A stretch of 64,000 nucleotides of DNA from a virus (lineage: Duplodnaviria; Heunggongvirae; Uroviricota; Caudoviricetes). The notes under the pieces are model-generated. The model did no database searches. It had not been told where the DNA came from and saw nothing but the letters and a program-made list of their open reading frames with translations. Positions within the stretch are counted from its first letter, which is position 1; every line of letters begins with the position of its first letter. Shown in pieces: positions 12,788 to 64,000 of this stretch. The position numbers were made by a program, and so were the translations under genes. The stretch lies in the IMG/VR virus record IMGVR_UViG_2645727901_000008. The stretch is one strand, 5' to 3'.

Positions 12788-12805
12788 AATTTTCTAACAC
12801 AAAAT
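12788..12805 (+). promoter_or_regulatory. C1-operator-like motif copy (aattttctaacacaaaat)
   Basis: Motif at the head of the about 350-bp leader preceding the small ORF and Rha-like gene. Confidence 0.45.
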
Positions 12806-23834: not shown

Positions 23835-24761
23835 GATATTACACTGACTCCTGAAAATCTTGGCTTGACGGATATCGTGTCTCAAGCTGGTAACGCCGTT
23901 CAGCGTTCCGGCGATAAAATGACCGGAGAACTGAAAATTGGTACGGTGAATGCGCTTCGGATATTTGATGAAGCATTCGGTCTTATTTTCCGTCGTTCAG
24001 AAGATTTTCTTCATTTCATTCCGACGGCTGAAGGACAAGGCGAAAACGGTGATATCGGCCCATTAAGGCCATTCGCTATAAATCTGAGAACAGGTGCTAT
24101 ATCTGTCAGCCACGGGGCCAAAATTGAAGGAGGTCTAGCTATTGGTGCTACTGATAACGCACTGGGTGAAAACTCCATTGTTCTGGGAGATAACGACACC
24201 GGATTTAGGCAAGATGGAGATGGTATTATTAGCTTCTATTCAAATGGTTCGCGCATCGGACATATTGATGGGTTAGGATTATATCTTTATAAAGATATTG
24301 AATCTAATGGCAGCAATTTTAGATTAAAAAGTAATTACCGCCACCACATTACATTCGCCAACGAAGACGGAAGTATTCGTATGTTTTTGTGGAAAGATAA
24401 CGGTGGTGATGGTGTTCATATTAATAACGGTTCAGATGGTGGTGGTGACTTCATCTTTAAAAGGGATGGCGGTTTCACTCTGGGAAGTGGTGCGCAAGTC
24501 GCGTCTAGTGGCGATATTTATGGTTCAGTGTGGGAAAACAACTGGTTAAGCACATGGCTGCATAATCATGTCGTTCGGGATATTCGTCTTGGCAGCATTG
24601 AACATAAAAACGTATGGCGCGACTACGGCTTTGGCGATGCGTCAGGTTATGTTTTAACAGCCGCAATTAACAGCAATGCGGATGATATTGTCGACACTGT
24701 TGCCAGAAGGCCAATTCAGAAATTGATTGGGGGAATATGGTACAACGTGGGGAGTGTTTAA
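23650..24761 (+). CDS. alternative tail-fibre C-terminal segment (Sv'), silent in this orientation
   Basis: In-frame coding starts at the repeat edge with no own start; shares [22 protein letters not shown]... with the expressed fibre and ends in the fibre-tip motif [16 protein letters not shown]. Confidence 0.75.
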
Positions 24762-24762
24762 G

Positions 24763-25290
24763 ATGATGCACCTGAAAAATATTAAGGCCGGGAATCCGAA
24801 AACACCGGAACAATACCAGCTAACTAAAAAAGCGGGCGTGGTATGGCTCTTTTGCGAAGATGGCAAGAACTGGTATGAGGAACAAAAGAATTTTCAGCCA
24901 GACACCATAAAAATTGCTTACGATGAGAACAACATCATCGTTGCTGTCAGTAAAGACGTTTCAACTATTAATCCTGAAGGGCTAAGCATAGTTGAAGTTC
25001 CTGATATTACGGCAAATCGTCGCGCAGACAATAACGGAAAATGGATGTTTCTGGATGGTAAAGTAGTAAAGAGGGAATATACAGAACAGGAACTGCAACA
25101 ACAGGCCGAATCACAAAAGGCCGCGTTACTTTCCGAAGCAGAAAGCGTTATTCAGCCACTGGAACGCGCCGTCAGGCTGAATATGGCGACGGATGAGGAA
25201 CGCGCACGACTGGAGTCATGGGAACGCTACAGTGTTCTGGTCAGCCGTGTGGATACGGCAAATCCTGAATGGCCACAAAAGCCTGAATAA
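24763..25290 (+). CDS. tail-fibre assembly protein (U'), alternative copy
   Basis: [23 protein letters not shown]... parallels the minus-strand assembly gene; start overlaps the Sv' stop. Confidence 0.8.
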
Positions 25291-25298
25291 AAATTAAG

Positions 25299-25318
25299 GC
25301 CCGATATCGGGCCTTGTC
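25299..25318. terminator. bidirectional terminator between convergent assembly genes
   Basis: Palindrome aaggcccgatatcgggcctt flanked by A/T runs. Confidence 0.6.
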
Positions 25319-25852
25319 TCATTCAGGTTGTTCGGGAAACGTTACTGGCAGGCAGGAGGTGTCTGTGGATTCGACTTTCTGCGCATAGAGCATCCACTCT
25401 GTTAATTTTTGTTTATTCTCGTCGGAAATGATGCCCAGCCGTAGCTGTGAGTCCCATAGCTGGGTTTTATCCCTGACGAGCTGTAGCAGGCTTTGCTTTT
25501 CATTTTCCGCCTGCTGCCTCTGCTCTTCCTCGGTATAAGTTCGCTTTACCACTACGCCATCTTTGAACATCCATTTACCAGAAATATCAGCCCGGCGATT
25601 TGCTGTAATATCAGGAACCTCAACGACGCTTGCGCCTTCTGGATTAATTGCTGAAACATCCTTTTCAATACAAATAATAACGCCGTTGTGGTCATAGACC
25701 ATTTTCAACGTATCAGACTGGAAATTCTTTTGTTCCTCATACCAGTTTTTTCCATCCTCTGTATAAAGCCATTTGATGTTAAATTGTTTCGTTAGCTGGT
25801 ATTGCTCTTTTGTTTTAGGGTTGCCCGCTGTAATATTTTTTAAGTGCATCAT
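25319..25852 (-). CDS. tail-fibre assembly protein (U), expressed copy
   Basis: 177 aa, MMHLKNITAGNPKTKEQYQLTKQ...; directly downstream of the fibre gene. Confidence 0.85.
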   Translation of the reverse strand: MMHLKNITAGNPKTKEQYQLTKQFNIKWLYTEDGKNWYEEQKNFQSDTLKMVYDHNGVIICIEKDVSAINPEGASVVEVPDITANRRADISGKWMFKDGVVVKRTYTEEEQRQQAENEKQSLLQLVRDKTQLWDSQLRLGIISDENKQKLTEWMLYAQKVESTDTSCLPVTFPEQPE

Positions 25853-25854
25853 AA

Positions 25855-28239
25855 TTAAATGCTCCCCGCGTTATACCACGTCCCATTAATACAATACTGA
25901 ATTGGCCTTGCCTGTGTTGTATCAATTAATTCATCACGGTTTCCATTAACTGAACCCGTAACGACATAACCTGACCTGTCAGACCAGCCGGGACCATTCC
26001 ATGTCTGAACAGATGACAGACCGCCCAGGCGAATACCTGTAATAAACCTTGAGTTACATTCTGCCTGTGTATATGCACCAACATCCCCCGCAGAGGGTTT
26101 GCGGGTTGTGGTGTAAAACTCTGACCAGTTAGCTTCAAAGCCATAACCATCACGCGCTGAACGATAAAAGATACCGCCGTTCTTATAATTCACGCGGAAC
26201 TGTACAGCAGGGCAACTCCCCGCATTCATATTAAAGTGGAGGATTAATGTCGATGCACCACTGATATCTGCATCATAAACGCCGCTATTCCAGTTCCAGC
26301 CAACAGCTTTATCATGTGCAACCCTGCTTCCTGTTTGCCCTAAAGCAAATGCAGGCTGCTGGTTTTTCGTATTGTAGTCTCTTCGCCAGCCAGGAGCATA
26401 AGCATCACCATGATTAATATAAGTGAATTGAGCGTTAGTGATTCCGCCGCCGCTGGACGTACTCGGAGTAGTAACGCGTATGGTCATTGCGCCGCGAGTG
26501 CCAATAACTTCCACCACAGCACCTGCAAGACAAATATTTCCGCAACCTGTATCTGTAATGACCTTATTATTTGCATAAGCCCATGAGCCTTTGCACATCC
26601 AGTAAGGATGGTTAAATGCCCCCTGACTCTCCAGCCACGAAATAAATTGCGCAGTTGTCCAGATCTGACTATCGCCACCAATATCCACCCATGCGCTATA
26701 TGCGCGGCAGGCACCAATATTTTTGGTGAAGGTATCTTTTCCCGGAATATCTGCGCCGTTCTGGTTTTTCTGTAATGCTCCTGCGGCTAATTCTACGGTT
26801 TGTTCAAGATTTAAATCTTCCGCCGTTAGCTCAATGTTTTTAGAACCATCAAATCCCACCCCGTTGATTGTTCGAGCTGTTTTCAATTTCGTCGCGGTGT
26901 CGGCGTTCCCTGTCAGCGCCCCGGTGATCCCGCCGTTGAAAGTCTGGCGCGCACTCCATGTGTTAGCCGTACTCAACAGGGGGATCTTTTCACCGCTGGT
27001 ACCGAGTTCTCTTAAACCAAGGTATTGGATAACGGCCAGTGTGCTTGTTTTAGCCAGAATATCGCGACCGACTGACGTTAAATCAGTCTGCGCTACCGTA
27101 TCCTTATCAATGAAATAAGGCAGTTTGTTTGCACCAGTCGCAAGACCAGCAAGCGCGGTTAAAGTTGCATCCAGAGGCTGTTTGCCTGCCAGCGCATTTG
27201 TCATTGTTGTCGCAAAGTTCGGGTCATTGCCCAGTGCTGCTGCAAGCTCATTCAGGGTATCAAGAGCTTCAGGTGATGAGCCGATCAATGCAGAGATAGC
27301 AGCTCTTACATAAGCGGTCGTAGCAATCTGCGTGTTATTCGTACCCTGTGCAGCGGTAGGCGCAGTAGGTATTCCCGTTAATGCAGGGCTTGCTAAAGGC
27401 GCTTTGAGAGCCAGGGCATTGTTGATAGTTGTGCTGAAATTCGGGTCGTTATTGATCGCAGCCGCTATTTCTTTCAGCGTGTCCATCGTTCCCGGAGCAC
27501 CATTGATAAGCGCATTTATAGCAGCATAGACAAAGGCCGCATTTGCGATCTGTGTGTTGTTTGTACCGGGTTCAGGTGTTGGCGAAGTCGGCGTACCTGA
27601 CAGATGCGGACTATCGAGCGGAGCTTTTGTATCAACCAAATCATGGAGAGTTTTGACAGCCAGAGGTGTAGCCGCTTTTCTTTCTTCTGTACTGCTTATT
27701 TCATTAGAGAATTCGACACCAACAGCACGGTTAACTCGGTATTTAAGCACAATCATTTCTTTAGTCACAGCCGTTGCGCCGCTAGGCACGATAACTCGAC
27801 ATAATTCAATTTGATTCTGCCCAATAGTATTGTCCGTACGCACGTAAATTCTTGCAGCGCTGACAGAAGATGCGCTATCTACCTGTGTCGTTTTTACACC
27901 ATGTTCAAAATTGGCTTCCAGCACAATAATGTTGGTAGCCCCAGCCTTTACCGAGACAGTCACATCTTCTATTTGCTGAACGGATATCTGAACATTATTT
28001 ACATCTACTGAAGCAGCCCCTTTACCTTCTGAGTTTTCAGAAGTTATACGGACGCTCAACCCTGTGCCGGGAACTGGTTCAAATCCACAGTAAAAGCCAG
28101 GCAAAACAATATTTTTAAGTTTTCTGTTAAGAGCCGAACTACTATAGAGTTCGAAATATTGAACATCAGCAAGCAACGGCTGTGAGACACCAGAGGATAG
28201 TGTCATTATGTTGTTCGTTTTATCAGCCCCCATAATCAA
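25855..28239 (-). CDS. tail fibre protein (constant part + current variable part)
   Basis: 794 aa with repeated PALTGIPTAPTAAQGTNNTQIATTAYV-type fibre motifs and C-terminal tip ARPIQYCINGTWYNAGSI. The 3' third (25855..26838) lies inside the invertible segment. Confidence 0.9.
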   Translation of the reverse strand: MIMGADKTNNIMTLSSGVSQPLLADVQYFELYSSSALNRKLKNIVLPGFYCGFEPVPGTGLSVRITSENSEGKGAASVDVNNVQISVQQIEDVTVSVKAGATNIIVLEANFEHGVKTTQVDSASSVSAARIYVRTDNTIGQNQIELCRVIVPSGATAVTKEMIVLKYRVNRAVGVEFSNEISSTEERKAATPLAVKTLHDLVDTKAPLDSPHLSGTPTSPTPEPGTNNTQIANAAFVYAAINALINGAPGTMDTLKEIAAAINNDPNFSTTINNALALKAPLASPALTGIPTAPTAAQGTNNTQIATTAYVRAAISALIGSSPEALDTLNELAAALGNDPNFATTMTNALAGKQPLDATLTALAGLATGANKLPYFIDKDTVAQTDLTSVGRDILAKTSTLAVIQYLGLRELGTSGEKIPLLSTANTWSARQTFNGGITGALTGNADTATKLKTARTINGVGFDGSKNIELTAEDLNLEQTVELAAGALQKNQNGADIPGKDTFTKNIGACRAYSAWVDIGGDSQIWTTAQFISWLESQGAFNHPYWMCKGSWAYANNKVITDTGCGNICLAGAVVEVIGTRGAMTIRVTTPSTSSGGGITNAQFTYINHGDAYAPGWRRDYNTKNQQPAFALGQTGSRVAHDKAVGWNWNSGVYDADISGASTLILHFNMNAGSCPAVQFRVNYKNGGIFYRSARDGYGFEANWSEFYTTTRKPSAGDVGAYTQAECNSRFITGIRLGGLSSVQTWNGPGWSDRSGYVVTGSVNGNRDELIDTTQARPIQYCINGTWYNAGSI
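26839..27023 (-). repeat. right 185-bp inverted repeat of the invertible segment
   Basis: Identical to the reverse complement of 23650..23834; encodes residues about 406-467 of the fibre. Confidence 0.85.
27009..27034. other. cix-like crossover site (right)
   Basis: ttctcttaaaccaaggtattggataa matches 21 of 26 positions of the hixL consensus as recalled. Confidence 0.6.
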
Positions 28240-44812: not shown

Positions 44813-44830
44813 AGTTTTCTAACACAAATC
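44813..44830 (+). promoter_or_regulatory. C1-operator-like motif copy (agttttctaacacaaatc)
   Basis: Motif 10 bp upstream of the ATG at 44840 of a plus-strand gene pair. Confidence 0.45.
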
Positions 44831-49974: not shown

Positions 49975-50251
49975 ACGTCGAGAACCAGCTAAAGCGCCTA
50001 AGGCTACTGATCCGGAACTTGAGCGAAGAATTGAAGAGTTCGCCAGCAAAGCGGATTTAATCCCGGATGAAATTACAACGGGGAAGGTGCTTGATAAAGA
50101 TGCGCCGCGCGACTTTAAATCCATACGCGTGAGCTTTAATGAATATGAGTACGGGGTGCTCGATGCGTTAAGCAAAAAGCTTAACCGCAGCAAATTGAAC
50201 CTGATTCGACATGCCATCCTCATGCTTGCTGAGTCAGAGGATGCTAAATGA
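49967..50251 (+). CDS. ParG-like small centromere-binding protein
   Basis: 94-aa ORF overlapping the parA stop; C-terminus IRVSFNEYEYGVLDALSKKLNRSKLNLIRHAI is compatible with a ribbon-helix-helix fold. Confidence 0.55.
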   Translation: MIKRREPAKAPKATDPELERRIEEFASKADLIPDEITTGKVLDKDAPRDFKSIRVSFNEYEYGVLDALSKKLNRSKLNLIRHAILMLAESEDAK

Positions 50252-50370
50252 TACCGATTTGATGCCTTATTGGCGTCTATCGTGTACCAGTGCAATAATG
50301 TGTCAAAGTGGTGCCATAATGGTGTTAATATACAGCCATATTGATATCAAATTGACACTGTATCGGCATC

Positions 50371-50396
50371 AAAAAGCCCCAGGCGGGGCTTTTTCT
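50371..50396. terminator. bidirectional intrinsic terminator
   Basis: aaaaagcccc-aggc-ggggctttttc between the parA/G locus and the convergent dam gene. Confidence 0.65.
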
Positions 50397-51300
50397 ATTT
50401 GAGCGTTGCAATGATATCGTTAGCGACTATTCGCGTGGATGCTTTGCATGACACGGACCGTCTGGCTGGCATGTGGTACAGCTTAAAACCGTTTCTTTCG
50501 TACAATTCGCGAATTTTTGGCGCGCCACTGTTTGTTATTACTATCTTTGCACCGCGCTGGTGGGCCGCCACCAACAGTGATACAAGCCGTTTTTGTTCAT
50601 CGAAAAGGAAGCTATTTCCTGAATAGCTGGTAAATCCCTCTGTATCTGGCAGCGGCTCATACGGCGGGTCACAAAAAATCACATCGTCTTTACCAGCCGC
50701 CTCGATGACACCAGCAAAGTCACCTGATACAAAGGAAGTGTTTTTGAGTACGTCATCAGCCAAAAATGCCTTCATCTCTGCATGTGGGAAGTAGGGCGCT
50801 TTGTATTTGCCATACCCCACGTTGAACTCGCCATTTTGGTTGTACCGCGTTACGCCATTAAAACAGTGACGATTAAGGTACAAAAATGCGGCAGCATGAT
50901 GTAGTTGGTCATACTTTCCTCTGTTAAATGCCTCACGCACTTCGAGGTAAGCGTCAGCGTTGTTGTAATTTTTGAAAAAACTATATGACAGCGTGACGAG
51001 CGAATGTCCTTCTCGCTGCAATGTCTGATAGAAGTTAATCAGGTCACCGTTAATATCATTAAGCAGGTTGTGGCGAAATCCTGCATTCGTAAATACGGAA
51101 CCGCCACCAACGAATGGTTCTATTAACCGCTTACCGTGTGGTAGATGCTCAAGCACTGTAGGCAATTCTGAGAATTTACCACCTACCCATTTGAATATCG
51201 GACGCTCATATTCATCCGGAGTCCGAATGGTGCGCATATAGCTAATTTCAGCCATCGTATCCTGTTTTTCTATGGCTATGCTTGCTATAGATTTACTCAT
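50395..51300 (-). CDS. dam: DNA adenine methyltransferase (Dam family)
   Basis: KWVGGK…EPFVGGGSVF…FLYLNRHCFNG…FCDPPYEP matches Dam motifs; ATG 51300 has SD aaggggg. Confidence 0.85.
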   Translation of the reverse strand: MSKSIASIAIEKQDTMAEISYMRTIRTPDEYERPIFKWVGGKFSELPTVLEHLPHGKRLIEPFVGGGSVFTNAGFRHNLLNDINGDLINFYQTLQREGHSLVTLSYSFFKNYNNADAYLEVREAFNRGKYDQLHHAAAFLYLNRHCFNGVTRYNQNGEFNVGYGKYKAPYFPHAEMKAFLADDVLKNTSFVSGDFAGVIEAAGKDDVIFCDPPYEPLPDTEGFTSYSGNSFLFDEQKRLVSLLVAAHQRGAKIVITNSGAPKIRELYERNGFKLYHMPARRSVSCKASTRIVANDIIATLK

Positions 51301-51913
51301 AGAGCACCCCCTTATTCGCTTCGAAAACTGCCTTTGCGAATCCATGTGGAGTAGCACTTCGAAAATTAGCCCTGTCAGGCCCTGGTGGCGCGGCATGGAT
51401 TCTGTTATCTGGCTTGCCTAATGATTCGTCCATTAGGGCATCAGGCATGACAAAGCCCTGGCCGCTCCAGAGGCATGTTTTTTTTGTGTAGTTATCTTCC
51501 TGACAATATGCAGTGAAGAAGTAAGGGTGAAAGATGTGATCTGGCTTACGCCAGAATGTCGATATTTTGCTGACCGGATTTTCAATCATGTACGGACAAC
51601 CGATCATCTTTGCAATGTCATAACACTGCCAGACAACCTGCATTGCTTTGAACTGGAAAACCGGATCTTTATTAGCCTTGTCCGAAAACCAGCGCGCGCC
51701 GGAAACAGCCAGGTCAGTACACGGTGGGAACCCGGCCAGAAACACGATGCGCTGCAAATTCTTACGGAGAAAAGCGTATACTTCATCGCTATCGATGATC
51801 GCACTAATACGCGTCAGAACGGCACCTGATTGCATCCGCTCGTCACTGGTCGATAAGTGCTGTGGATCGACGATAGCGGCATCGACACCGTATTCCAGCC
51901 AGGGGGCAACCAT
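51293..51913 (-). CDS. C5-cytosine-methyltransferase-like protein lacking an evident motif I
   Basis: Motif IV-like FLAGFPPCTDLAVSG and motif VI-like CPYMIENP are present. The track start at 52045 would overlap rdgC by about 88 nt; ATG 51913 has a strong SD (acggggg). No FxGxG seen in either version. Confidence 0.45.
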   Translation of the reverse strand: MVAPWLEYGVDAAIVDPQHLSTSDERMQSGAVLTRISAIIDSDEVYAFLRKNLQRIVFLAGFPPCTDLAVSGARWFSDKANKDPVFQFKAMQVVWQCYDIAKMIGCPYMIENPVSKISTFWRKPDHIFHPYFFTAYCQEDNYTKKTCLWSGQGFVMPDALMDESLGKPDNRIHAAPPGPDRANFRSATPHGFAKAVFEANKGVLYE

Positions 51914-51956
51914 TGCCCCCGTAAAATCACAAAGACTCACAACAAGCTGTCGGTTA

Positions 51957-52862
51957 TTATCGTTCTGCTTCACCGCCAATGGCCTCCACCAGCGCGTTAA
52001 ACAGTGCAGATAATTCGCCCGTAAAGAGCACGAAATCAGCATCAAATCGTTGTGCTACATCCTCCCGGTCGATATCGTCGTTCTGGTCATAGAGATCATC
52101 ACAGAATGTCAGGGCTTTGATACTCATATCATCGTTGACTCTGAACGACGCACGGTCCATCCAGTTAATTGCAACGGTCGTAGCTACTTTCCCCGCCTCA
52201 ATGTGAGACATAATCTCGTCGGACTGTAGATCAACTTTGTTGCAGCGAACGGCACCACCATTATCGAGCAGACCCTTTAATGTGGCGTCTTCACCTGCTG
52301 TAAATCCGGCAGGGAAGCCGCTTTTAAACCACTCGGTCATTGTAATTTCCAGCGGTTCGCGTGGTGTGAATGGAATGACAGGCAGGCTGCCGAGCGACTT
52401 TCGCAATAAAGCCAGCTGGTCCTCTGCCTTTTTGGCGCTGCTTGCCTCAACGAATACCAGATGGTTGCTGCGGTCGATCAGGATTTTGGCGAGTGATTTT
52501 CTCGTGAACGCGCGAGGCAAAAGTGAATGCAGGACTTCATCTTTAAGACTGTCTCTTTCCGTTTTCTTCAGCTTGCGGGCTTGCTCTTCTTCGAGTTTCA
52601 GGACTTTTTTCTGCAACTCTTCCTTGAGCACCTGCGAGGGGAGAATTTTTTCTTCTCGCTTATGCTGTATTAGCAGAAAACCCTGGTATTCATGGGTGAG
52701 GTTGTCACCAAGAACAGGTGTCCAACCGACTTTAGCTGTGTCCTGAGAACCGCAAGGAGTAAACACGAATTTGCTAAGAGCATCGGATACTTCTGCGGCA
52801 CTCCAGTTAACTTCACGTGAAAGACGATAGATGAAGATGTTTTTGAAAGCGACTGATCTCAT
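51957..52862 (-). CDS. rdgC: recombination-associated protein RdgC (P1 HrdC-like)
   Basis: …VYRLSR…FTPCGSQD…EEKILPS…[22 protein letters not shown]…[13 protein letters not shown]… is collinear with E. coli RdgC as recalled. Confidence 0.9.
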
Positions 52863-52871
52863 GTTTCACCA

Positions 52872-52910
52872 ATTGTGTTAGAAAATTCTATTCAATTATC
52901 TAACACAATT
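52872..52910. promoter_or_regulatory. palindromic pair of C1-operator-like motifs
   Basis: ccaattgtgttagaaaatt…aattatctaacacaattgg: two motif copies in inverted orientation directly upstream of the rdgC start. Confidence 0.5.
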
Positions 52911-52921
52911 GGATGTGTTTT

Positions 52922-53575
52922 CTATCCCTTCTTGAAATCAAAGTTGCTTGCGATGGCCTGGAAGGTGCCTCCAGCCTTGAAATCAATATTTTCGTCGGCT
53001 GTCACAGTAATGTTTTTGCCATTAACGCTGATGTTATCGGCTGATTTGACGTTAACACTCCCTCCCGCATTCACTACTACATCAGCCGGACCAATGATGT
53101 ATATCTGCCCTGATTCATTCATTCCAATCCTTGAGCCTGCTGCCGTATTCGCTATTTCATATCCACCGCCAGCCGTTCGCACTTCGAGCACATTGTTGCG
53201 GTGAATCACGAAATCTTTTGTCGCCGAAAATTGCGGGCGGGGAGGCGCTCCGTCTACTTCTGGTGGCGTCCAGCCGCTACCATTGCCTGACGCCTCCGGC
53301 GCGACGTTTGGTACTCCTCCAGGCGCATCCTGAGCTGCGCCAACTATCATTGGGCGTCTGGTATCAATTCGACCATTAACATCCAGATAAGGAAACTCTA
53401 CCCATACCAGGTCGCCTTTTACTGTAGGTACAAACGCGTTACCTATGGGTAACAGGTATTCTGCCCAGGGTAGATCGTCATCAGGAACGCCATTCCAGTC
53501 TGGTAAAACACGGACCTGAGCACGCATAAGCCCTGCCGGGTGCACAGTTCCAACAATTTGCGCTCTACGCTTCAT
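52922..53575 (-). CDS. baseplate spike/hub protein (gpV-like)
   Basis: The N-terminus resembles the gpV-type baseplate spike domain, followed by a repetitive beta-helix-like C-terminus (…VVNAGGSVNVKSADNISVNGKNITV…). Confidence 0.45.
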   Translation of the reverse strand: MKRRAQIVGTVHPAGLMRAQVRVLPDWNGVPDDDLPWAEYLLPIGNAFVPTVKGDLVWVEFPYLDVNGRIDTRRPMIVGAAQDAPGGVPNVAPEASGNGSGWTPPEVDGAPPRPQFSATKDFVIHRNNVLEVRTAGGGYEIANTAAGSRIGMNESGQIYIIGPADVVVNAGGSVNVKSADNISVNGKNITVTADENIDFKAGGTFQAIASNFDFKKG

Positions 53576-56162: not shown

Positions 56163-56173
56163 ATTGTGATTTC
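56163..56173 (-). promoter_or_regulatory. late-promoter-like motif (attgtgatttc)
   Basis: Core TTGTGATTTC upstream of the 55320..56111 operon. Confidence 0.35.
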
Positions 56174-56181
56174 AATTCATA

Positions 56182-56226
56182 TCCCAACATGGGACTAAAG
56201 TGCTTTACATTGTCCCATATTGGGAC
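56182..56226 (+). promoter_or_regulatory. two palindromic operators in the higBA promoter
   Basis: TCCCA-ACA-TGGGA (56182..56194) and GTCCCA-TAT-TGGGAC (56212..56226), with a -10-like TATACT at 56231..56236. Confidence 0.5.
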
Positions 56227-56256
56227 TACTATACTTTCAGAGAGAAGGAATCTGTG

Positions 56257-56559
56257 ATGAAAATAATTTCGGTAAAAACACTAAGGGATTTCTGGGCGAA
56301 GAATCCCGATGCAGAACAGCCATTAAAGGCATGGGTTGATGAAGCAACAAAGGCTGACTGGAAAAATCCGGCTGAGATCAAAGAACAGTACCGGACAGCC
56401 AGCATCCTTAAAAACAGGCGCGTGGTGTTCAATATTAAGGGAAATGATTACAGGTTAATTGTCGCAATTGCTTATCAGCGAGGATGGATGTTCGTTAAGT
56501 TTATTGGAACACATAAGGAATACGATGCCATTGAAGCGGATACAATAGAACTGGAGTAA
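56257..56559 (+). CDS. higB: HigB toxin (RelE/ParE superfamily)
   Basis: MKIISVKTLRDFWAKNPDAEQ…VVFNIKGNDYRLIVAIAYQRGWMFVKFIGTHKEYD; the THKEYD motif and fold pattern match E. coli HigB as recalled; SD gaagga. Confidence 0.85.
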   Translation: MKIISVKTLRDFWAKNPDAEQPLKAWVDEATKADWKNPAEIKEQYRTASILKNRRVVFNIKGNDYRLIVAIAYQRGWMFVKFIGTHKEYDAIEADTIELE

Positions 56560-56562
56560 ATC

Positions 56563-56922
56563 ATGAACATTAAACCTATCCGTACAGAACAAGATTATGA
56601 GGCCGCACTGCGTGCGGTCGAACCGATGTTCGATAACGAACCGGAAATGAACACACCGGAAGGCGATTTCTTTGAAGTAATGTGCCTGCTCATTGAAGAG
56701 TACGAGAAAAAGCATTACCCAATTGAGCCACCATCACCTATTGAAGCCATTAAATTCCGTATGGAACAGCAAGGGCTGACCGTGAAGGATCTGGAACCGG
56801 CGATTGGTAAGTCAAATCGAGTTTACGAAGTGCTTAATGGGACACGAAATTTGACGTTACCTATGATTCGTCGTTTACATGCCCAGTTTGGTATTCCACT
56901 GGAAAGTCTGGTTGGTGTTTAA
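56563..56922 (+). CDS. higA: HigA antitoxin (HTH)
   Basis: 119 aa, 3 bp after higB; C-terminal HTH-like segment LTVKDLEPAIGKSNRVYEVLNG. Confidence 0.8.
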   Translation: MNIKPIRTEQDYEAALRAVEPMFDNEPEMNTPEGDFFEVMCLLIEEYEKKHYPIEPPSPIEAIKFRMEQQGLTVKDLEPAIGKSNRVYEVLNGTRNLTLPMIRRLHAQFGIPLESLVGV

Positions 56923-56984
56923 GTTTGGCGGTCTGGAGGACCGCTTTTTATCTAAAATAAAAATTAGAAGGTTTGATAGCTTGT

Positions 56985-57722
56985 ATGGGCAAAAATTCAT
57001 CAACAGAAAACACATCTACAATTGACTCAATCAAGGGCACAATGGATGAAGCCATAAAAGATAAATTATTTAATAAATTATTTGCATATGTGGTGGTTTC
57101 ATTTTTTGTCGTTAATTGGCAAGAAATACTAATTTTGTTTAAATCTAAATATGATATATACACAACACTGTCTATAGTATGGGTAGGGGATAAATATCAA
57201 ATCCCTTATTTTGGAACCTTCATTGTATCTCCGTTTTTAGCTCACTTTGTGATGCCGTTTATATATGGCACTATTGCGTCCATAGTGATGCCTTATATTA
57301 CTATGCGTATATCAAAACTCACTGGTAGAAATTATGCGCAAATAAGATACATTGACCATGAATTTGACTCAGAAGAGAAAGCAAGAGTAAAGGCGTTGCT
57401 GAGAAACCTAAAGAAAAAAGAGGAAGAGCTTTTAAAATTAGAGGAACAAATAGAAGGTCAACAAAAAATACTGAATACAATCGAAGAAAAGAAGAGAGAG
57501 ATTGAGAGTGCCAGAGTGGCTCTGTATCACGGTATAAAAGTAATTGTTGATATATATAAAGCAAAAGATAAAAGGATTTCCACCAAAGAAGATTTTGCCG
57601 ATTTATTAAAAGCAATTGAAGAAAGTGATTTTTATAAAGACACTGGGTTGTGGGGTATTAATAAATTAATAGATGACGTGGAGACAATATATGAGTCTCA
57701 ATCGACATCAAAGGACAAGTAA
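56985..57722 (+). CDS. membrane protein with C-terminal coiled coil (cargo)
   Basis: Very AT-rich; hydrophobic helices FAYVVVSFFVVNW and FIVSPFLAHFVMPFIYGTIASIVMPYI, then a K/E-rich coiled coil. Start codon uncertain. Confidence 0.5.
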   Translation: MGKNSSTENTSTIDSIKGTMDEAIKDKLFNKLFAYVVVSFFVVNWQEILILFKSKYDIYTTLSIVWVGDKYQIPYFGTFIVSPFLAHFVMPFIYGTIASIVMPYITMRISKLTGRNYAQIRYIDHEFDSEEKARVKALLRNLKKKEEELLKLEEQIEGQQKILNTIEEKKREIESARVALYHGIKVIVDIYKAKDKRISTKEDFADLLKAIEESDFYKDTGLWGINKLIDDVETIYESQSTSKDK

Positions 57723-57726
57723 TATA

Positions 57727-57752
57727 AAAGGCGGGATAACCGCCTTTGTTGT
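57727..57752. terminator. bidirectional intrinsic terminator
   Basis: aaaggcgg-gataa-ccgccttt between convergent genes. Confidence 0.55.
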
Positions 57753-57755
57753 AAA

Positions 57756-58952
57756 TTAAGAACCTTTCTTCACATACTCCATGAACATTTTTTCAGCTTG
57801 TGCAGGTGGTGTTCCTGCCATGACCAGCGCATCAATGAACGCCTGCTTCTTCAGTGCGAACTGATCGGCCAGGCGTTGCTGAAGCTCCTTGTTTTTCTGT
57901 TTCTCACGTTGCAACGCCGCTTCTTTTGCTGCCGCCCGTTTTTTCTGTGCGTCTGACAACTTTCTGGCCTTGGTCAGTTGGTCACGTAGCTTGTCAATCT
58001 TGCCGTTGTCCTTTGCCAGTTTTGTGCTTAAAGCGGCCTGGCGCTTCTGATAGAGCCTCCATTCGCGCTTGGCAGCGTCAACGTTTGTTTTACTGTTGCG
58101 ATTGCGATTAAACTCCCTCTCGTCTTCTTTTGAGAAGTGTTTGGTTGTACGGCGGCGATCGTCACCAAATGCAATTTGCGTTGCGGCCTTTTGTAACGCA
58201 CGAGCAATACTCATTTGCCAACTAGCGGACTGTAACCGCGTCATTGAGTGGATCACGTGTTTACAGGCGACGCCTTGTAGCTTAGGGTTACGAACTTTTG
58301 GATAGGCGTATTCTTTTGGCGGGGCCAGGGCAAAGTTACCCGCAGTAGCGATGTAACGATACCAGTATTGATGACGACCACAGTCACAATCGAAAGACAC
58401 CCGCCCGGCGCACAGTGATTTAGTGATTTTCAGAGCTGATTTATCGTCTTCTGCGATGTCATCGACCATCTGATCCCATTCTTCAAAGCGTATCCGGACG
58501 ATATGGTGCTGGTGGACGGATATATCCGATGCTTCTACGCGGATATGAATCACGTTGTGGCGAAGAGATACGGGTGTAGCTCTTTTGATACCAGATCCGT
58601 CATCCACGGCGTTATTTGCACGCTTAATATCGATTGCCTGGCTGGATGCCACCAGCTGGGCGTATGTGATGCCAGCCGTCTTGCTGTCATATTTTTCGCG
58701 TGTTTTACTCCGTAGCTTTTCGAAACCTTTCAGGTCGTCTCGCGTGAAGAACGTGCCGCCTTTTTTCTTCCCTAACTTGAGAATATCTTCGGCGGATTTG
58801 TTCCTCAGTCTACCTGGCGTCAGCGTCCGGTGAGCTTGTCGGCGCTTACGGGTTTGTTCTTTCCTGATAAGGTCGAATAAACGCGTGAAGTCCTTAGAGG
58901 ACAGGCCGTCAGTGATATAGCGCCCGTCCTGGTTTTTCAGGAAATCAGGCAT
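57756..58952 (-). CDS. Cys/His-motif protein with lysine-rich coiled-coil C-terminus
   Basis: 398 aa with FDCDCGRH…CKHVIH, a possible zinc-binding motif, and a K/A/Q-rich coiled coil; start overlaps the upstream gene by 8 nt. Confidence 0.5.
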   Translation of the reverse strand: MPDFLKNQDGRYITDGLSSKDFTRLFDLIRKEQTRKRRQAHRTLTPGRLRNKSAEDILKLGKKKGGTFFTRDDLKGFEKLRSKTREKYDSKTAGITYAQLVASSQAIDIKRANNAVDDGSGIKRATPVSLRHNVIHIRVEASDISVHQHHIVRIRFEEWDQMVDDIAEDDKSALKITKSLCAGRVSFDCDCGRHQYWYRYIATAGNFALAPPKEYAYPKVRNPKLQGVACKHVIHSMTRLQSASWQMSIARALQKAATQIAFGDDRRRTTKHFSKEDEREFNRNRNSKTNVDAAKREWRLYQKRQAALSTKLAKDNGKIDKLRDQLTKARKLSDAQKKRAAAKEAALQREKQKNKELQQRLADQFALKKQAFIDALVMAGTPPAQAEKMFMEYVKKGS

Positions 58953-59602: not shown

Positions 59603-60256
59603 TCAAAGTATCACGGTATCTTCATCAACTTCTTTCCCAGCCAGTGACTTTGGCTGGGAGGTGCCTGCTTTAACTTTTTCATGCCCAATAATGGAAAGGA
59701 ACGAAGCGAGTATGCCTGTTTTTTGCTCTTTCTCGACTGTACCGGTCATCTGCTCTACATAATCTGCACTGGCAACGTTGTGGTATACGGTCGCGTAGCA
59801 ACACAGGATCATCAGAATATGCTCCGGCCTGATATCCTGCCAGTTCACCCTGTAGACTTCTTCTCCGTTACCGTTGTATTCGGTATCAACGATAGAGTCG
59901 GGGATTTCGAAAGCACCTTTGTTATTTTGCGGCAGGGATAATAGTTTCTGGAGTTTTAACTCTCTGTATCTTTCCATCCCGACGATGATTGCTGCTCTTC
60001 CATCGGCATGACGGGTCTTGAGAGTCACCTGACTTGCTCCGGTGCCAGCGGAGATCGTTGGCGTAATTTCGTCTACCAGTACCTTAAATTTGCTTTTCCG
60101 CAGGGCTGCTATAGCTGGAGGAATTTTTTGCTTTTGCTCCAATGCTGACGCGGGAAGGGGTTTTACTTCGTTAATAATGAGAGCACCGTCTTTCAGTATT
60201 GCAGTGAGCATTTGAGGCTTGCTGGTGGTCAGGCTGAATATTGCGATCTTTTCCAT
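59603..60256 (-). CDS. hypothetical protein
   Basis: About 218 aa from ATG 60256 (MEKIAIF…) with strong SD ggaggaagg; a 15-mer late-type motif lies 145 bp upstream. Confidence 0.5.
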   Translation of the reverse strand: MEKIAIFSLTTSKPQMLTAILKDGALIINEVKPLPASALEQKQKIPPAIAALRKSKFKVLVDEITPTISAGTGASQVTLKTRHADGRAAIIVGMERYRELKLQKLLSLPQNNKGAFEIPDSIVDTEYNGNGEEVYRVNWQDIRPEHILMILCCYATVYHNVASADYVEQMTGTVEKEQKTGILASFLSIIGHEKVKAGTSQPKSLAGKEVDEDTVIL

Positions 60257-60400
60257 TGTCCTTCCTCCACGGATGACGGATACAAAAAAAGGCCGCACAT
60301 GGCGGCCTGCTTTGGCGTTATGACTCCCTACCGCGCTTCGGCTGAAAGTTAATCGTCAAAAGAACCTTCAACGGGAGCCGTTAGCGCGATGGATTATGTG

Positions 60401-60415
60401 CAGTTTGTGATTTCC
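60401..60415 (-). promoter_or_regulatory. late-promoter-like motif (cagtttgtgatttcc)
   Basis: Identical 15-mer to 28729..28743; CATAAT follows 4 bp downstream in sense orientation. Confidence 0.45.
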
Positions 60416-60524
60416 AAAATAGTGTCAACCACTTTTTGTGGATTTTATTTTTTGACCGAAATTTGGCCTAAATCATGTTGATGTAGTTAATTGTTTTTAT
60501 AACATAAAACTTCATTTTGTTTAC

Positions 60525-61148
60525 ATGAAGGATGGTGTAGTGAAGTTAAGGGTTTTAGGGGCCGCGCTCGCGGCTATGTTGGGATGCGTATCTGCTAATA
60601 CTGCCAATGCAACTGCGTTACCTGCACAATTCAGGGCAGGGCAGCAGGTTATGAATAATGCTGGTGGGGATCATTCACAAGCGGCCATTATGGACTTTTG
60701 CAAGAGGGAGGGCATTCCATTACGGCCTGTTGGAACTCAGTTTATTGGTAAAACTGACTTTTGCGTTTTTGCATATACAGCATATCTGACGGACAAAGCT
60801 ATAACAAAAACAGGTTATTCAACCAAAGATACTCTTTCCAGATTAAGTCAGGGATGGCAGCAATTCGAAGTGTATCGCCAGCAAGGATTAGGTGAGTTAT
60901 TGCAACCACTTTTTATGCTTGCGTTGGTGCCCGAGGGGCAGCAATTTTTGGTTAAAAAGGGAATGCTTCGCCAAAGTGATATTGCCGGGTTCGATAGCAT
61001 GATGGCTTATGAGCGCAAACTAACCGAGCAGCGAAATAAAAAACCATCTGCTTCATGTGTGCAAAGTAAAACAGCAGAATACAGTGCAGTAGCCGGGCCT
61101 TTAGCCAAACAAATGGCAGAGCAATGGTGTAAAAAATACGGGCAATAA
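60525..61148 (+). CDS. secreted/periplasmic protein (signal peptide)
   Basis: Signal peptide KLRVLGAALAAMLGCVSANTANA; likely GTG start at 60540 with SD aagga; possible lipobox MLGC. Confidence 0.5.
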   Translation: MKDGVVKLRVLGAALAAMLGCVSANTANATALPAQFRAGQQVMNNAGGDHSQAAIMDFCKREGIPLRPVGTQFIGKTDFCVFAYTAYLTDKAITKTGYSTKDTLSRLSQGWQQFEVYRQQGLGELLQPLFMLALVPEGQQFLVKKGMLRQSDIAGFDSMMAYERKLTEQRNKKPSASCVQSKTAEYSAVAGPLAKQMAEQWCKKYGQ

Positions 61149-61168
61149 GTTACGCAGCGGAGGCAGAA

Positions 61169-61561
61169 TTGAAAAGATTGACTATTGCTTTACTGGCGTC
61201 TTTCCCTTTGATCGCGAGCGCCGGAAATTTACAAGTTAAGTGCGGTCGGTTTGATATAAAAATCTATCCAGATGCCATATTTCTGAATGGGAATAAGGTT
61301 GATAACGTACACCGAAAAACTAAATCTGACGTAATGAGCTATGTGTTCCAGGAGTATGCGGAGATGGGGGGAACTTACACGCTGTACTCGCTGGATGTTC
61401 CTTCTCGCGGTGATATGACATTATCCCATCAATGGCAGAACGCCGATGGCGAAGCTCTGCGCGAAGTTAAAACAGAAAAATGCGGCACTTTCCATTCTTT
61501 TAAAGGGAAAGTGCCAAATGTTAAATCTGTGCTTGAAAAACAGCGCGCAGGTGATTTTTAA
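61169..61561 (+). CDS. secreted small protein (signal peptide)
   Basis: MKRLTIALLASFPLIASA signal peptide; 130 aa; followed by a terminator. Confidence 0.5.
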   Translation: MKRLTIALLASFPLIASAGNLQVKCGRFDIKIYPDAIFLNGNKVDNVHRKTKSDVMSYVFQEYAEMGGTYTLYSLDVPSRGDMTLSHQWQNADGEALREVKTEKCGTFHSFKGKVPNVKSVLEKQRAGDF

Positions 61562-61583
61562 ACTGCGTTAGCACTTTGAACAT

Positions 61584-61628
61584 GGCGACAACACATCTTG
61601 GTGGCTGCGTTGTCGCTGTATGTTTTTA
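61584..61628 (+). terminator. intrinsic terminator
   Basis: Stem ggcgacaac/gttgtcgc followed by tgtatgtttttat. Confidence 0.55.
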
Positions 61629-61649
61629 TAATATAAAGCATTAAAGTTT

Positions 61650-62279
61650 TCATTTTTGTCGGATCTTTTCCAGCATATTTAATTCATTATCACTTTCTGC
61701 TGCTGAGACGGTTGGCCTCACATTTCCGAAATATTTCCTGTGAGACTCATGACTTATGTATTCACCGACAGTTTCATTCTTGAATATACGAATTTGACAT
61801 ATGCGAGATCCAACAATAAGTTCTACAGGGCTATTCCCATGATTAAATAACTCTAAAGATATACAGCCTCTGTACCCTGGTTGTATCATGGTATTTAATG
61901 AAAGACCAAGCCTTGTATAGCTGCTTCTGGACAATACATCAGCGTAGCAATCTGGTGGCAAACAAACATATTCTAATGTTGTTGCCAGTACCACTTGATT
62001 CGGGTAAACAATGAATCTATCCCCAAGATCTCTCCTTGTTTCCTGGAAAAATGTTCTGATTGGTTGATGAGTATCATTGTTTTTTGATGGAATTAACTCT
62101 ATTGACGGCTTCCTTGTCATAATAGACACTAAAAAATCGTAACCAAGTCTAAGGTCTATGGTGAAGTTCCCAATTTGGTTTTTATTTAGAAGAGGTTCAA
62201 TGAACAACGACTCAGGTTCTTCTGATTCATAATATTGCAGCAATTCAGCTTTGCTTAGGAGATTCATTGTGCACTCCAT
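61650..62279 (-). CDS. dCTP deaminase family (Dcd / dUTPase-fold) protein
   Basis: IDLRLGYDF…LSRSSYTRLGLSL…IQPGYRGCISLELFNHGNSPVELIVGSRICQIRIF is collinear with E. coli Dcd motifs as recalled, including the S/R and E catalytic positions. Last gene of a coupled operon; AT-rich. Confidence 0.75.
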   Translation of the reverse strand: MECTMNLLSKAELLQYYESEEPESLFIEPLLNKNQIGNFTIDLRLGYDFLVSIMTRKPSIELIPSKNNDTHQPIRTFFQETRRDLGDRFIVYPNQVVLATTLEYVCLPPDCYADVLSRSSYTRLGLSLNTMIQPGYRGCISLELFNHGNSPVELIVGSRICQIRIFKNETVGEYISHESHRKYFGNVRPTVSAAESDNELNMLEKIRQK

Positions 62280-63337
62280 TTTTCAAGAATCATTACGTTT
62301 CGAATCGATTTTTCAACCAAATCATTTATAGTTTTTTCTATGGCTTCTTGTGACAACCCAGACCATATACCCGTAGGTTTTTCCCATTCAGAGCATAAGT
62401 ACTGCCAGCTGCTGTTAATAAAAGCATGCATTTCATTGTGGTCGCGAATAACAAAAGGACGCACATTATCAAAAGCTGATTTCACATCAAGCAAAGGTGT
62501 CGGCAATGTCAAACAAGGAGAAATAATCTGCCCACCATTATGTAAGGCTGATATCACAGCATTGAACATGCCAACAACTGGATTTTCCACTTTGTTCAAA
62601 AAGTCGCTTACAATTTTAACTCTATCTTCTGTGGATGGGTGAGTATAGCTTGCAGGATGAGAGCCAGCTAATTTGTATAAGAAATCTACCCCACTTTTTC
62701 CAATAAATTGGGCACTAAATAGATCTGCAAAATATTCTCTGCAATGATTTATCCAAATAACATCAGGTAGATTACTCCATTCTGGTCCAGGAAGTGTGCC
62801 TTTGTCCTTGGAACGATAGTTAAGACAGGCAAGCTCAGAAATACCTTTGCTAATATCAACGAAATGTCCCAATTCGTGATATAAAGGTATAGAGCATAAT
62901 GGTCGTCTTCTGTACATTTCAGGTAATGAAATCTGAATTAATTCGACATCGAATTTGACATTTAAAACTTCGTCAAATAAAGAATACAAATTCTTGTTTA
63001 CAGACTTAAAATAAAACCCATGCATATCTGGAGATAGGGCTGTGGTTATAAGTGTTTTTTCACTTATCCATTTTTTACAGGCATCATTTAAGCAATAGAC
63101 AATCTCGTAGGGAATTTTCTTTGTAGTACTGCCAGTGAAAAAATTAACTGCATCGGTGATAAAAAAAGTACAATCCGCAATTATTTTATCAGCAACATTC
63201 ACATGGTTTTCATAGAGCTTATCCACCGCTTCTTGTAGAACAGCAAGATATTCATGCATGTCTTTAGAAAAATAGGGAGATTCTGATATCTCCCTTAGCT
63301 TATTTCGAACTAATGTAAGTTGTGTAAATGCAAGCAT
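62264..63337 (-). CDS. HExxH zinc-metallopeptidase-like protein (ImmA/IrrE-like core)
   Basis: 357 aa with LYHELGHFVD and a downstream HCREYFADLF element resembling the ImmA/IrrE E..A..FA motif; start and stop overlap the neighbouring genes. Confidence 0.6.
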   Translation of the reverse strand: MLAFTQLTLVRNKLREISESPYFSKDMHEYLAVLQEAVDKLYENHVNVADKIIADCTFFITDAVNFFTGSTTKKIPYEIVYCLNDACKKWISEKTLITTALSPDMHGFYFKSVNKNLYSLFDEVLNVKFDVELIQISLPEMYRRRPLCSIPLYHELGHFVDISKGISELACLNYRSKDKGTLPGPEWSNLPDVIWINHCREYFADLFSAQFIGKSGVDFLYKLAGSHPASYTHPSTEDRVKIVSDFLNKVENPVVGMFNAVISALHNGGQIISPCLTLPTPLLDVKSAFDNVRPFVIRDHNEMHAFINSSWQYLCSEWEKPTGIWSGLSQEAIEKTINDLVEKSIRNVMILEKWSAQ

Positions 63338-63642
63338 TAAATGTACTCTAATACATTCCGGGCCATTACGGGTTCTAACATATCTTCGCTAGTTACTTTG
63401 GTTAGCACCTGGGCGAGCGCCTTAGTGTGGCGTATCTCTACCGCGAGCGAGATGGACTCTCTGTGAGAAGGAATCTGTAATTGATCACCTTTATCTACAC
63501 TTAAGTTTGAGGCTTCTCTGATCACCTCATAAACCCGTAACTTTAACTGCTGTGACACTTCTTGTTGAGATGCTATAAGCTGAAGTACAGTCTTGATCAA
63601 CTTCAAAGAATCAGAAGCTTGCTGAGGAACCGCATAGAGCAT
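63337..63642 (-). CDS. small protein, first gene of the peptidase-Dcd operon
   Basis: 101 aa with strong SD aaggagg; its stop overlaps the peptidase ATG by 1 nt; no motif recognised. Confidence 0.5.
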   Translation of the reverse strand: MLYAVPQQASDSLKLIKTVLQLIASQQEVSQQLKLRVYEVIREASNLSVDKGDQLQIPSHRESISLAVEIRHTKALAQVLTKVTSEDMLEPVMARNVLEYI

Positions 63643-63779
63643 AACCCCTCCTTTCCCTTATCTATAACCGCTTTCTTTTTTCTGTGTATGTTAAAAGTAG
63701 AAGCGGTTTTTACCTTTTGTAATATATATAGTGTCTAAAACTAACTTTGGCACTATATATGGCATGATATCTATGTTTT

Positions 63780-63821
63780 AAAGACACAAAAGCTCTGTTA
63801 AAACAGAGCTTTTGTGTCTTT
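63780..63821. repeat. 42-bp perfect palindrome upstream of the peptidase-Dcd operon
   Basis: aaagacacaaaagctctgtt-aa-aacagagcttttgtgtcttt with 20-bp arms, flanked by T/A runs; terminator or operator. Confidence 0.6.
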
Positions 63822-64000
63822 AACTTGATCATTTTCTCGCTGAAGTGTATGTCAGGCTTAGCTCATAATCAAGTTGCTTCCAAGCTAAAAATGAGCTAGC
63901 TCCCTGAAACACTAAGAGCGGGGTGTTTCATTTATTAGCGTTGGGCCTGACGGTGTGTAGGTGAATTTTAGCTCATTACTCGATAACGACGGGGAATGGA

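Follow-up and report, generated by a model that had tools for sequence, protein, structure and literature searches.

An rdgC, cytosine methyltransferase and dam operon in a D6-like phage-plasmid and its compact Dcm-like enzyme

In a stretch of 64,000 nucleotides (nt) from the IMG/VR virus record IMGVR_UViG_2645727901_000008 (hereafter the window), three overlapping genes on the minus strand, rdgC, a C5-cytosine-methyltransferase-like gene and dam, lie between a palindrome on their 5' side and a terminator hairpin on their 3' side. Here, we show that they constitute one transcription unit with coupled translation behind a conserved predicted bivalent operator, and that the small protein encoded by the middle gene has a conserved C5-type active site. 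We consider it likely that this is an early, C1-controlled rdgC and DNA-modification operon of a D6-like phage-plasmid that encodes a functional compact Dcm-like C5 enzyme, and that it is the counterpart of the Odmt(Op68)-Pdmt-uhr-hrdC-dmt operon of phage P1. An initial annotation of the window had placed the same three minus-strand genes in one repressor-controlled operon, which is supported by our analysis, and had suspected that the middle gene is degenerate or repurposed, which is not borne out.

Operon layout and predicted operator

The window corresponds by local alignment to coordinates 8491-72288 of Escherichia phage D6, a plasmid prophage of the P1 family, and can be assigned by these matches to the D6-like P1-family phage-plasmids. 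The 2.7-kb region that holds the operon is 94.7% identical to D6; E. coli plasmids match it at up to 99.9% identity, NZ_AP027678 has 99.9%, and the region is found in 119 plasmid records from Escherichia, Salmonella and Shigella. Our statements on the D6 and P1 genomes rest on their GenBank annotations. The genes and the hairpin that follows them are:

51957..52862, minus strand: rdgC, homologue of P1 hrdC, 301 amino acids (aa); matches Pfam RdgC (5.1e-103) and NCBIfam RdgC; D6_65, annotated 'similar to P1 gene hrdC'
51293..51973, minus strand: gene for a compact Dcm-like C5-cytosine methyltransferase, 226 aa; GTG start, as in D6_64
50395..51300, minus strand: dam, GATC-type (Dam family) N6-adenine methyltransferase, 301 aa; matches PF02086 (D12 methyltransferase, 1.5e-55) and TIGR00571 (9.4e-74); D6_63
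50371..50394, both directions: intrinsic-terminator hairpin A5-GCCCC-AGGC-GGGGC-T5, adjoining the dam stop codon; RNA fold -15.9 kcal/mol, z = -2.1

The GTG of the middle gene at 51973 has a GGAGG 9 nt upstream and overlaps the end of rdgC by 17 nt, and dam begins at the ATG at 51300, its first 8 nt being shared with the end of the C5 gene (ATGAGTAA). Both the GTG start and the length of 226 codons are kept in 22 D6-like IMG/VR loci; the ATGAGTAA junction recurs in 17 of these 22 relatives, which have both the 17-nt and the 8-nt overlap, and four others (L025-L028) retain the overlap with rdgC but differ at the junction before dam. Because the two overlaps and the gene boundaries are conserved, the three genes are read as one translationally coupled unit, in which the middle gene most likely starts at GTG 51973. 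A longer form of this gene from a TTG start (250 aa) was rejected, since the GTG and its GGAGG are conserved and one relative (L024) has a stop codon immediately upstream of the GTG.

The terminator hairpin at 50371-50394 was absent from the output of the consensus scanner and was read directly from the sequence. In D6, orf62 (glutaminyl-tRNA synthetase) sits between a ParA-like gene pair and dam (D6 59654-61627); the window has no orf62 at this place (50250-50387), and without it the convergent genes share the terminator directly. As a separate observation on the adenine methyltransferase, GATC is depleted in the whole window (210 observed against 283 +/- 17 expected under a second-order Markov model), which is of note as the element encodes its own Dam. 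GGCC is depleted as well (135 against 220 +/- 15 under the same model).

Upstream of rdgC lies an inverted repeat with arms of 19 nt each at 52869-52887 and 52894-52912, 95% complementary and 6 nt apart, whose right arm ends in the GG of the Shine-Dalgarno sequence GGTGA, 4 nt ahead of the rdgC ATG. The arms and the GG inside them confirm the initial description of two inverted operator copies that overlap the rdgC ribosome-binding site. The predicted control elements are:

52919..52924, minus strand: -35-like hexamer TAGAAA of a predicted sigma-70 promoter, from a consensus scan; GATAG(A/C)AAA is kept in 11 distinct relatives
52895..52900, minus strand: -10-like hexamer GATAAT inside O1, from a consensus scan, with an 18-nt spacer; invariant in relatives
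52893..52909, minus strand: predicted operator O1, ATTGTGTTAGATAATTG, a 17-bp P1-C1-type site over the promoter spacer and the -10 hexamer; left palindrome arm, in a 17-bp frame common with the P1 operator ATTGCTCTAATAAATTT; core invariant in relatives
52872..52888, plus strand: predicted operator O2, ATTGTGTTAGAAAATTC, inverted relative to O1, between the -10 hexamer and the rdgC ribosome-binding site; 11/17 positions as in P1 Obana; kept in relatives

O1 and O2 are arranged tail to tail with a gap of 4 bp. The P1 operators used for comparison were Odmt/Op68 (ATTGCTCTAATAAATAT) and Obana (ATTGCTCTAATAAATTT), and, aligned in the same frame, O2 (ATTGTGTTAGAAAATTC) and Obana agree at 11 of 17 positions. 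Exact copies of the 13-mer core TTGTGTTAGAWAA number four in the window, and allowing at most two mismatches yields ten copies where 4.1 are expected; none of 100 shuffles reached ten. Operator conservation was examined across 22 IMG/VR relatives, 11 of which are distinct; these 11 agree fully in both arms (TGTTAGATAATT and TTTTCTAACA), with free variation in the 8-bp centre. D6 has operator-like sites upstream of lpa (4626), icd/anti-repressor (21266), ref (76636) and rdgC, which we take to be loci that C1 regulates in P1; the P1 annotation itself shows C1 operators at dmt and ban. From the match to the P1 operator, the recurrence of the core, the positions of the D6 sites and the invariance of the arms, we infer that the palindrome is a bivalent C1-type operator of D6 immunity specificity, to which C1 is predicted to bind. 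P1 has a similar arrangement in the bivalent Obanab (Op72ab), where two inverted 17-bp C1 operators lie tail to tail over the promoter. The operator copies overlap in Obanab, whereas they are 4 bp apart in the window, and the sequence differs at 6 of 17 positions, which would be consistent with a different immunity specificity.

Could the palindrome instead act mainly as RNA? It might form a hairpin in read-through transcripts from the upstream late tail and baseplate genes, stopping or stabilising them or masking the rdgC ribosome-binding site, in place of an operator or in addition to it. Minus-strand RNA of the palindrome folds into an 18-bp hairpin (-22.7 kcal/mol, z = -5.3) that lies 10 nt past the stop of the baseplate gene (52922) and contains the first two G of the Shine-Dalgarno sequence, and the outer arm positions vary symmetrically among relatives (CAATTG, CATTTG, AACTG), with a double G-to-A / C-to-T change in L011. 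However, symmetric changes would be just as expected from two half-sites that both follow the specificity of the cognate repressor, and some relatives (L012, L019, L027) have changes in one arm only. In addition, no U-run follows the hairpin on its 3' side, each arm alone fits the asymmetric 17-bp frame of the P1 C1 operator, and single operator copies, with which a hairpin is impossible, are located upstream of other C1-type regulated genes. A predominant role as RNA thus seems unlikely, and we favour the operator.

Outside the operon, further operator-like sites with an exact TTGTGTTAGAAAA core are present in the window at 12789-12805 and 44814-44830, both on the minus strand, and a weaker one at 2882-2898, also on the minus strand. 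The sites correspond to D6 21266, which lies between repL and icd/anti-repressor, and to D6 54207, which lies between the major capsid gene and orf52, and are candidate members of the remaining C1 regulon.

A compact C5 methyltransferase family

The middle protein carries motif IV (FPPC, residues 82-85 of the 226-aa form) and motif VI (ENP, residues 131-133) of C5 methyltransferases, as the initial annotation had recognised. It had also reported that the FxGxG motif for binding S-adenosylmethionine (SAM) is missing. Taken literally this holds, as the pattern F.G.G has no match in the longest reading of 250 aa, of which the 226-aa form is a part. However, a probable variant of motif I is present: in the structural model CDFTG directly follows beta strand 1 (residues 10-14), at the motif I position, it aligns with LFDGSG of the enzyme from phage KarlJaspers, and L[C/F/Y]Dx[T/S]G is conserved at the equivalent position throughout the family. 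What alignment reveals is a positionally equivalent, conserved and non-canonical motif, and not the intact canonical form. Judged by this conservation, LCDFTG is probably a family-specific variant of motif I and not a loss of it, in a clade that has Cys at the aromatic position and lacks the first glycine.

Other features of the protein are as follows. RSATP, of motif X type, stands in place of GNAVP, Lys164 and Lys165 are present, and only ~35 residues (171-205) separate YTKKTCLW from RSATP, so that there is no sizeable target-recognition domain. An AlphaFold2 model built from 45 sequences (mean predicted local distance difference test score 86.9, predicted template modelling score 0.86) has the fold of a class I Rossmann methyltransferase and is closest to solved C5 enzymes; strand 2 (31-35) ends at the conserved Asp36, which is the layout expected for a SAM-binding half. 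The window protein is 8-15% identical to the catalytic domain of DNMT3A/DNMT3B, to M.HhaI, to the prophage protein 3g7u and to CmoX (8yf3), and, unlike DNMT3A/DNMT3B and bacterial C5 enzymes, it has variant motifs I and X and no PF00145 match. Neither the protein nor a 45-sequence profile gave a meaningful match when searched by sequence against the PDB, the best E values being 0.44-0.74, to unrelated proteins, and Foldseek against the PDB was uninformative.

The protein belongs to PHROG 757, which it matches over its full length (E 3.1e-78, residues 25-248 of the 250-aa reading). This family comprises at least 7,926 proteins in a 90%-clustered collection and 1608 clusters at 50% identity. The 1572 phage records that contain a match are mostly those of Escherichia and Klebsiella phages, and they often label it Dcm-like or C5 methylase. 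Among the 120 family matches listed, none has a Pfam domain except P0004, a fusion-like protein that joins an RdgC tail to the C5 part on a 1-kb contig and is probably a gene-calling artefact. A second unusual member, P0264 (532 aa), combines a Mu Gp48-like baseplate protein with ~80 residues from the C-terminus of the C5 family and is probably a chimeric gene call or a remnant.

Conservation within the family follows the active site. LCDxTG..PW, VDPQH, FPPCT, ENP, DNYTKKTCLW, PDxRIH and RSATPxGF are invariant in close relatives; in 64 diverse members at 33-50% identity, C85, E131, P133, K164, T166 and W169 remain invariant and D16, D36, R205, S206, T208 and P209 are at least 90% conserved. 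Across 150 cluster representatives motif I reads L[C/F/Y]Dx[T/S]G, with LFDGSG as one variant, motif IV is FPPCT in 88, and motif X reads RSxTP. When the window protein and the KarlJaspers enzyme are added to these representatives, motif VI is ENP in 138 of the resulting 152 aligned sequences. Among relatives at 82-92% protein identity, the ratio of nonsynonymous to synonymous substitution rates (dN/dS) is 0.07-0.12 for the C5 gene, 0.10 for dam and 0.05-0.10 for rdgC.

The combination of rdgC, C5 gene and dam is confined to D6-like elements (loci L008-L030), the divergent triad locus L029 showing identities of 48/64/45%. Neither rdgC nor dam adjoins the C5 gene in the other 57 viral loci, and two bacterial examples are prophages in which it lies near replication or lysis genes with no adjacent restriction gene. 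Since its homologues reside in prophages without a restriction gene nearby, the compact C5 enzyme is an orphan phage methyltransferase. An insertion of ~28 residues (…EYGRMIPK…) between motif VIII and the PDNRIH segment is seen in L029 (3953-4762), P0009 and P0121; the insertion site is the presumed DNA-recognition loop, which suggests that specificity may vary there.

One member of the family has been studied experimentally. Gene bas06_0055 of phage KarlJaspers (MZ501090), a 711-bp 'Dcm-like C5 cytosine methyltransferase' gene, also belongs to PHROG 757 (6.2e-86), and its 236-aa product is 37% identical to the 226-aa window protein over the full length (E 1e-41). The genome of phage K42 is 95.4% identical to that of KarlJaspers, and all K42 mutants that escape retron Ec86 are mutated in the 711-bp dcm gene (bioRxiv 10.1101/2023.08.16.553469). 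Expression of K42 Dcm, a near-identical orthologue of the KarlJaspers enzyme, raised 5-methylcytosine (5mC) on multicopy single-stranded DNA (msDNA), as measured by liquid chromatography-mass spectrometry, and triggered retron Ec86; a C82A/E128A/K175A/K176A mutant was inactive (10.1101/2023.08.16.553469). By pairwise alignment, the counterparts of the mutated residues in the window protein are C85, E131, K164 and K165. Size class, catalytic Cys, Glu and Lys-Lys, and RSxTP are thus common to the window protein and the KarlJaspers/K42 enzyme of Drexlerviridae; the two differ in motif I (LCDFTG against LFDGSG) and in gene context, as the KarlJaspers gene is not adjacent to dam.

Several points weigh against a functional enzyme in a C1-controlled operon. 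The Phe that canonically stacks on the adenine of SAM is Cys in the window protein, and the first Gly of GxG is Phe. The protein has no Pfam or NCBIfam match, with none to PF00145 at E <= 0.1, and the studied relatives themselves reach only E 0.15-0.27 against this profile. The loop between motifs VIII and X is unrelated in sequence between the KarlJaspers and window proteins, and because these loops differ so strongly, neither activity level nor target site is transferable from one to the other, and the target may differ. The claim that K42 Dcm acts at CCWGG is itself based on analogy with the host Dcm and on an indirect assay with msDNA mutants (10.1101/2023.08.16.553469). As a separate observation, CCWGG is not depleted in the window (152 observed, 129 +/- 12 expected), and site frequencies gave no clue to the target. 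Finally, C1 binding, transcription start and promoter are predictions, and c1 lies outside the window (D6 227-1264).

Is the middle gene a dead or repurposed relic that lost SAM binding together with FxGxG and now has a non-enzymatic role, for instance as a DNA-binding or accessory subunit for Dam or RdgC? The literal motif is absent, its aromatic residue and first glycine are replaced (CDFTG against LFDGSG in KarlJaspers), Pfam and NCBIfam models do not match, and in D6-like elements the gene is always tightly coupled to dam, with a fusion to Dam on one contig. Nonetheless, the pattern of invariant Cys, Glu and Lys and of nearly invariant Asp, Arg, Ser, Thr and Pro residues in 64 relatives is that of an enzyme, one motif I position is occupied by C, F or Y in different members of the family, including the studied FDGSG type, and most homologues have no dam or rdgC nearby. 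As dN/dS resembles that of dam, the catalytic residues are invariant, the family is large and a 37%-identical relative is reported to form 5mC, the gene is not degenerate, and we regard a relic as very unlikely.

Slightly less credit still is due to the idea that the clade, with Cys for the SAM-stacking Phe, without the first motif I Gly and with a minimal recognition loop, has a cofactor pocket or a DNA specificity different in kind from classical C5 enzymes. The enzyme might then use another alkyl donor, methylate cytosines almost independently of sequence or depend on the co-translated Dam, and a large family without a Pfam or NCBIfam model would hide a new DNA-modification activity. Transfer of a non-methyl group or use of another cofactor through the non-canonical pocket (CDxTG, RSATP), such as host carboxy-SAM (Cx-SAM) in the manner of CmoX, is highly improbable: E. 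coli supplies Cx-SAM, carboxymethyl transfer by CmoX depends on one basic residue close to the cofactor (PMC12783734), motif X of the family begins with an Arg, CmoX as a natural cytosine carboxymethyltransferase is a close structural match, and the K42 study measured 5mC only, but K42 Dcm did give a 5mC signal, and CmoX candidates were defined by SPPC and R350 and usually lie beside cmoA and a ligase (PMC12783734), whereas the window protein carries FPPC and its operon contains neither of these genes. The preferred reading of the middle protein remains a functional Dcm-like C5 methyltransferase.

Relation to phages D6 and P1

The closest described counterpart is orf65-orf64-orf63 of D6 (MF356679; annotated by Gilcrease and Casjens), with the same gene order and overlaps. 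The D6 genes are annotated as a 'recombination associated protein of RdgC family, similar to P1 hrdC' (orf65), a 'putative DNA-cytosine methylase' (orf64) and a 'site-specific DNA-adenine methylase, similar to C-term half of P1 dmt only' (orf63). The C5 proteins of D6 and the window are 99.2% and the Dam proteins 95% identical, and the D6 palindrome upstream is that of the window with one base changed per arm.

P1 resembles the window in having, in Odmt(Op68)-Pdmt-uhr-hrdC-dmt, a C1 operator over the promoter and an RdgC homologue followed by cytosine-type and Dam functions, and in the general logic of the neighbourhood. It differs in its one monovalent operator, in the extra gene uhr and in a single 754-aa fusion whose C5 half is a canonical PF00145 domain. 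That Dmt fuses a C5-like and a Dam-like domain, as the initial annotation had stated, is confirmed by its Pfam domains, PF00145 from residue 8 and PF02086 at residues 493-725; the P1 annotation has the protein methylate GATC 'and perhaps' C5 cytosine. The two functions are indeed separate in the window, in frames that overlap by 8 nt, as they are in the 22 relatives, none of which has a frameshift that would fuse the C5 and dam frames.

How are the separate genes related to the halves of Dmt? Residues 23-300 of the window Dam are 66.9% identical to the C-terminal half of Dmt (PHROG 116 positions 510-777). The window C5 protein, in contrast, gives a BLASTP E value of 2.9 against Dmt, and the PHROGs differ, 757 for the middle gene and 116/363 for the N-terminal half of Dmt. 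An hhalign comparison of the 64-sequence alignment with this N-terminal half had a probability of 0.2%, which is not significant, the single-sequence template being too weak; it nonetheless paired PC with PC and ENP with ENV. That the middle gene is the split-off C5 half of Dmt was rejected on the BLASTP value, the different PHROGs and the presence of PF00145 in Dmt only; alignment to P1 Dmt and to C5 profiles gave no significant match. From the lack of detectable similarity between the C5 parts, next to Dam halves that are 66.9% identical, P1 and D6 appear as a case of non-orthologous replacement, with unrelated cytosine-methylase modules in the same operon slot.

A metagenomic contig of 2057 bases (Logan SRR32529081, L090) encodes, at 218-1909, a 563-aa in-frame fusion of a C5 part, a linker of ~60 residues and a D12 Dam domain. 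Its C5 part is of the PHROG 757 type and 65% identical to the window protein, so that the fusion mimics the architecture of Dmt with an unrelated C5 module, an observation from a single short contig that is only suggestive.

The window also departs from D6 outside the operon. The tail-fibre segment (24707-26898) is inverted relative to D6 at 87% identity, which fits a Cin-invertible C segment in the opposite state or a variant of it. Little or no match to D6 is found at 56172-57764 and 60582-64000; in the first of these intervals D6 has RelE/HigA toxin-antitoxin modules.

Proposed function and significance

What may the operon do in the life of the phage-plasmid? In the plasmid-prophage state, two C1 molecules would bind the tail-to-tail operators and shut off the promoter, one operator covering the -10 region and the other the beginning of the transcript, ~18 bases, as far as the ribosome-binding site. 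Upon infection or induction, a single message would yield, by coupled translation, the RdgC-type RecA modulator and two methylases. Both methylases may then modify replicating phage DNA, Dam presumably at GATC, by homology to P1 Dmt/Dam. The small enzyme would use SAM to produce 5mC, and its action probably protects against restriction. We speculate that repression of the C5 gene in lysogens avoids methylation of the host genome and the triggering of methylation-sensing defences such as retron Eco1.

The finding is genuine, yet ordinary: the operon type and the phage lineage are known, the D6 gene is already annotated, and one member of the family has been studied. Little new biology follows from it, as it represents the D6 version of the long-known early operon of P1. 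One practical consequence concerns annotation. Because Pfam and NCBIfam have no model for the family, RefSeq labels the protein 'hypothetical protein' on about a hundred phage-plasmids of E. coli, Salmonella and Shigella, and a dedicated family profile would improve this.

In conclusion, the operon slot that P1 and D6 fill with apparently unrelated cytosine-methylase modules offers a clean case of non-orthologous replacement. Relatives of the C5 enzyme trigger retron Eco1, and C1 repression of the C5 gene may, as an unproven idea, matter for the viability of lysogens in retron-bearing hosts.

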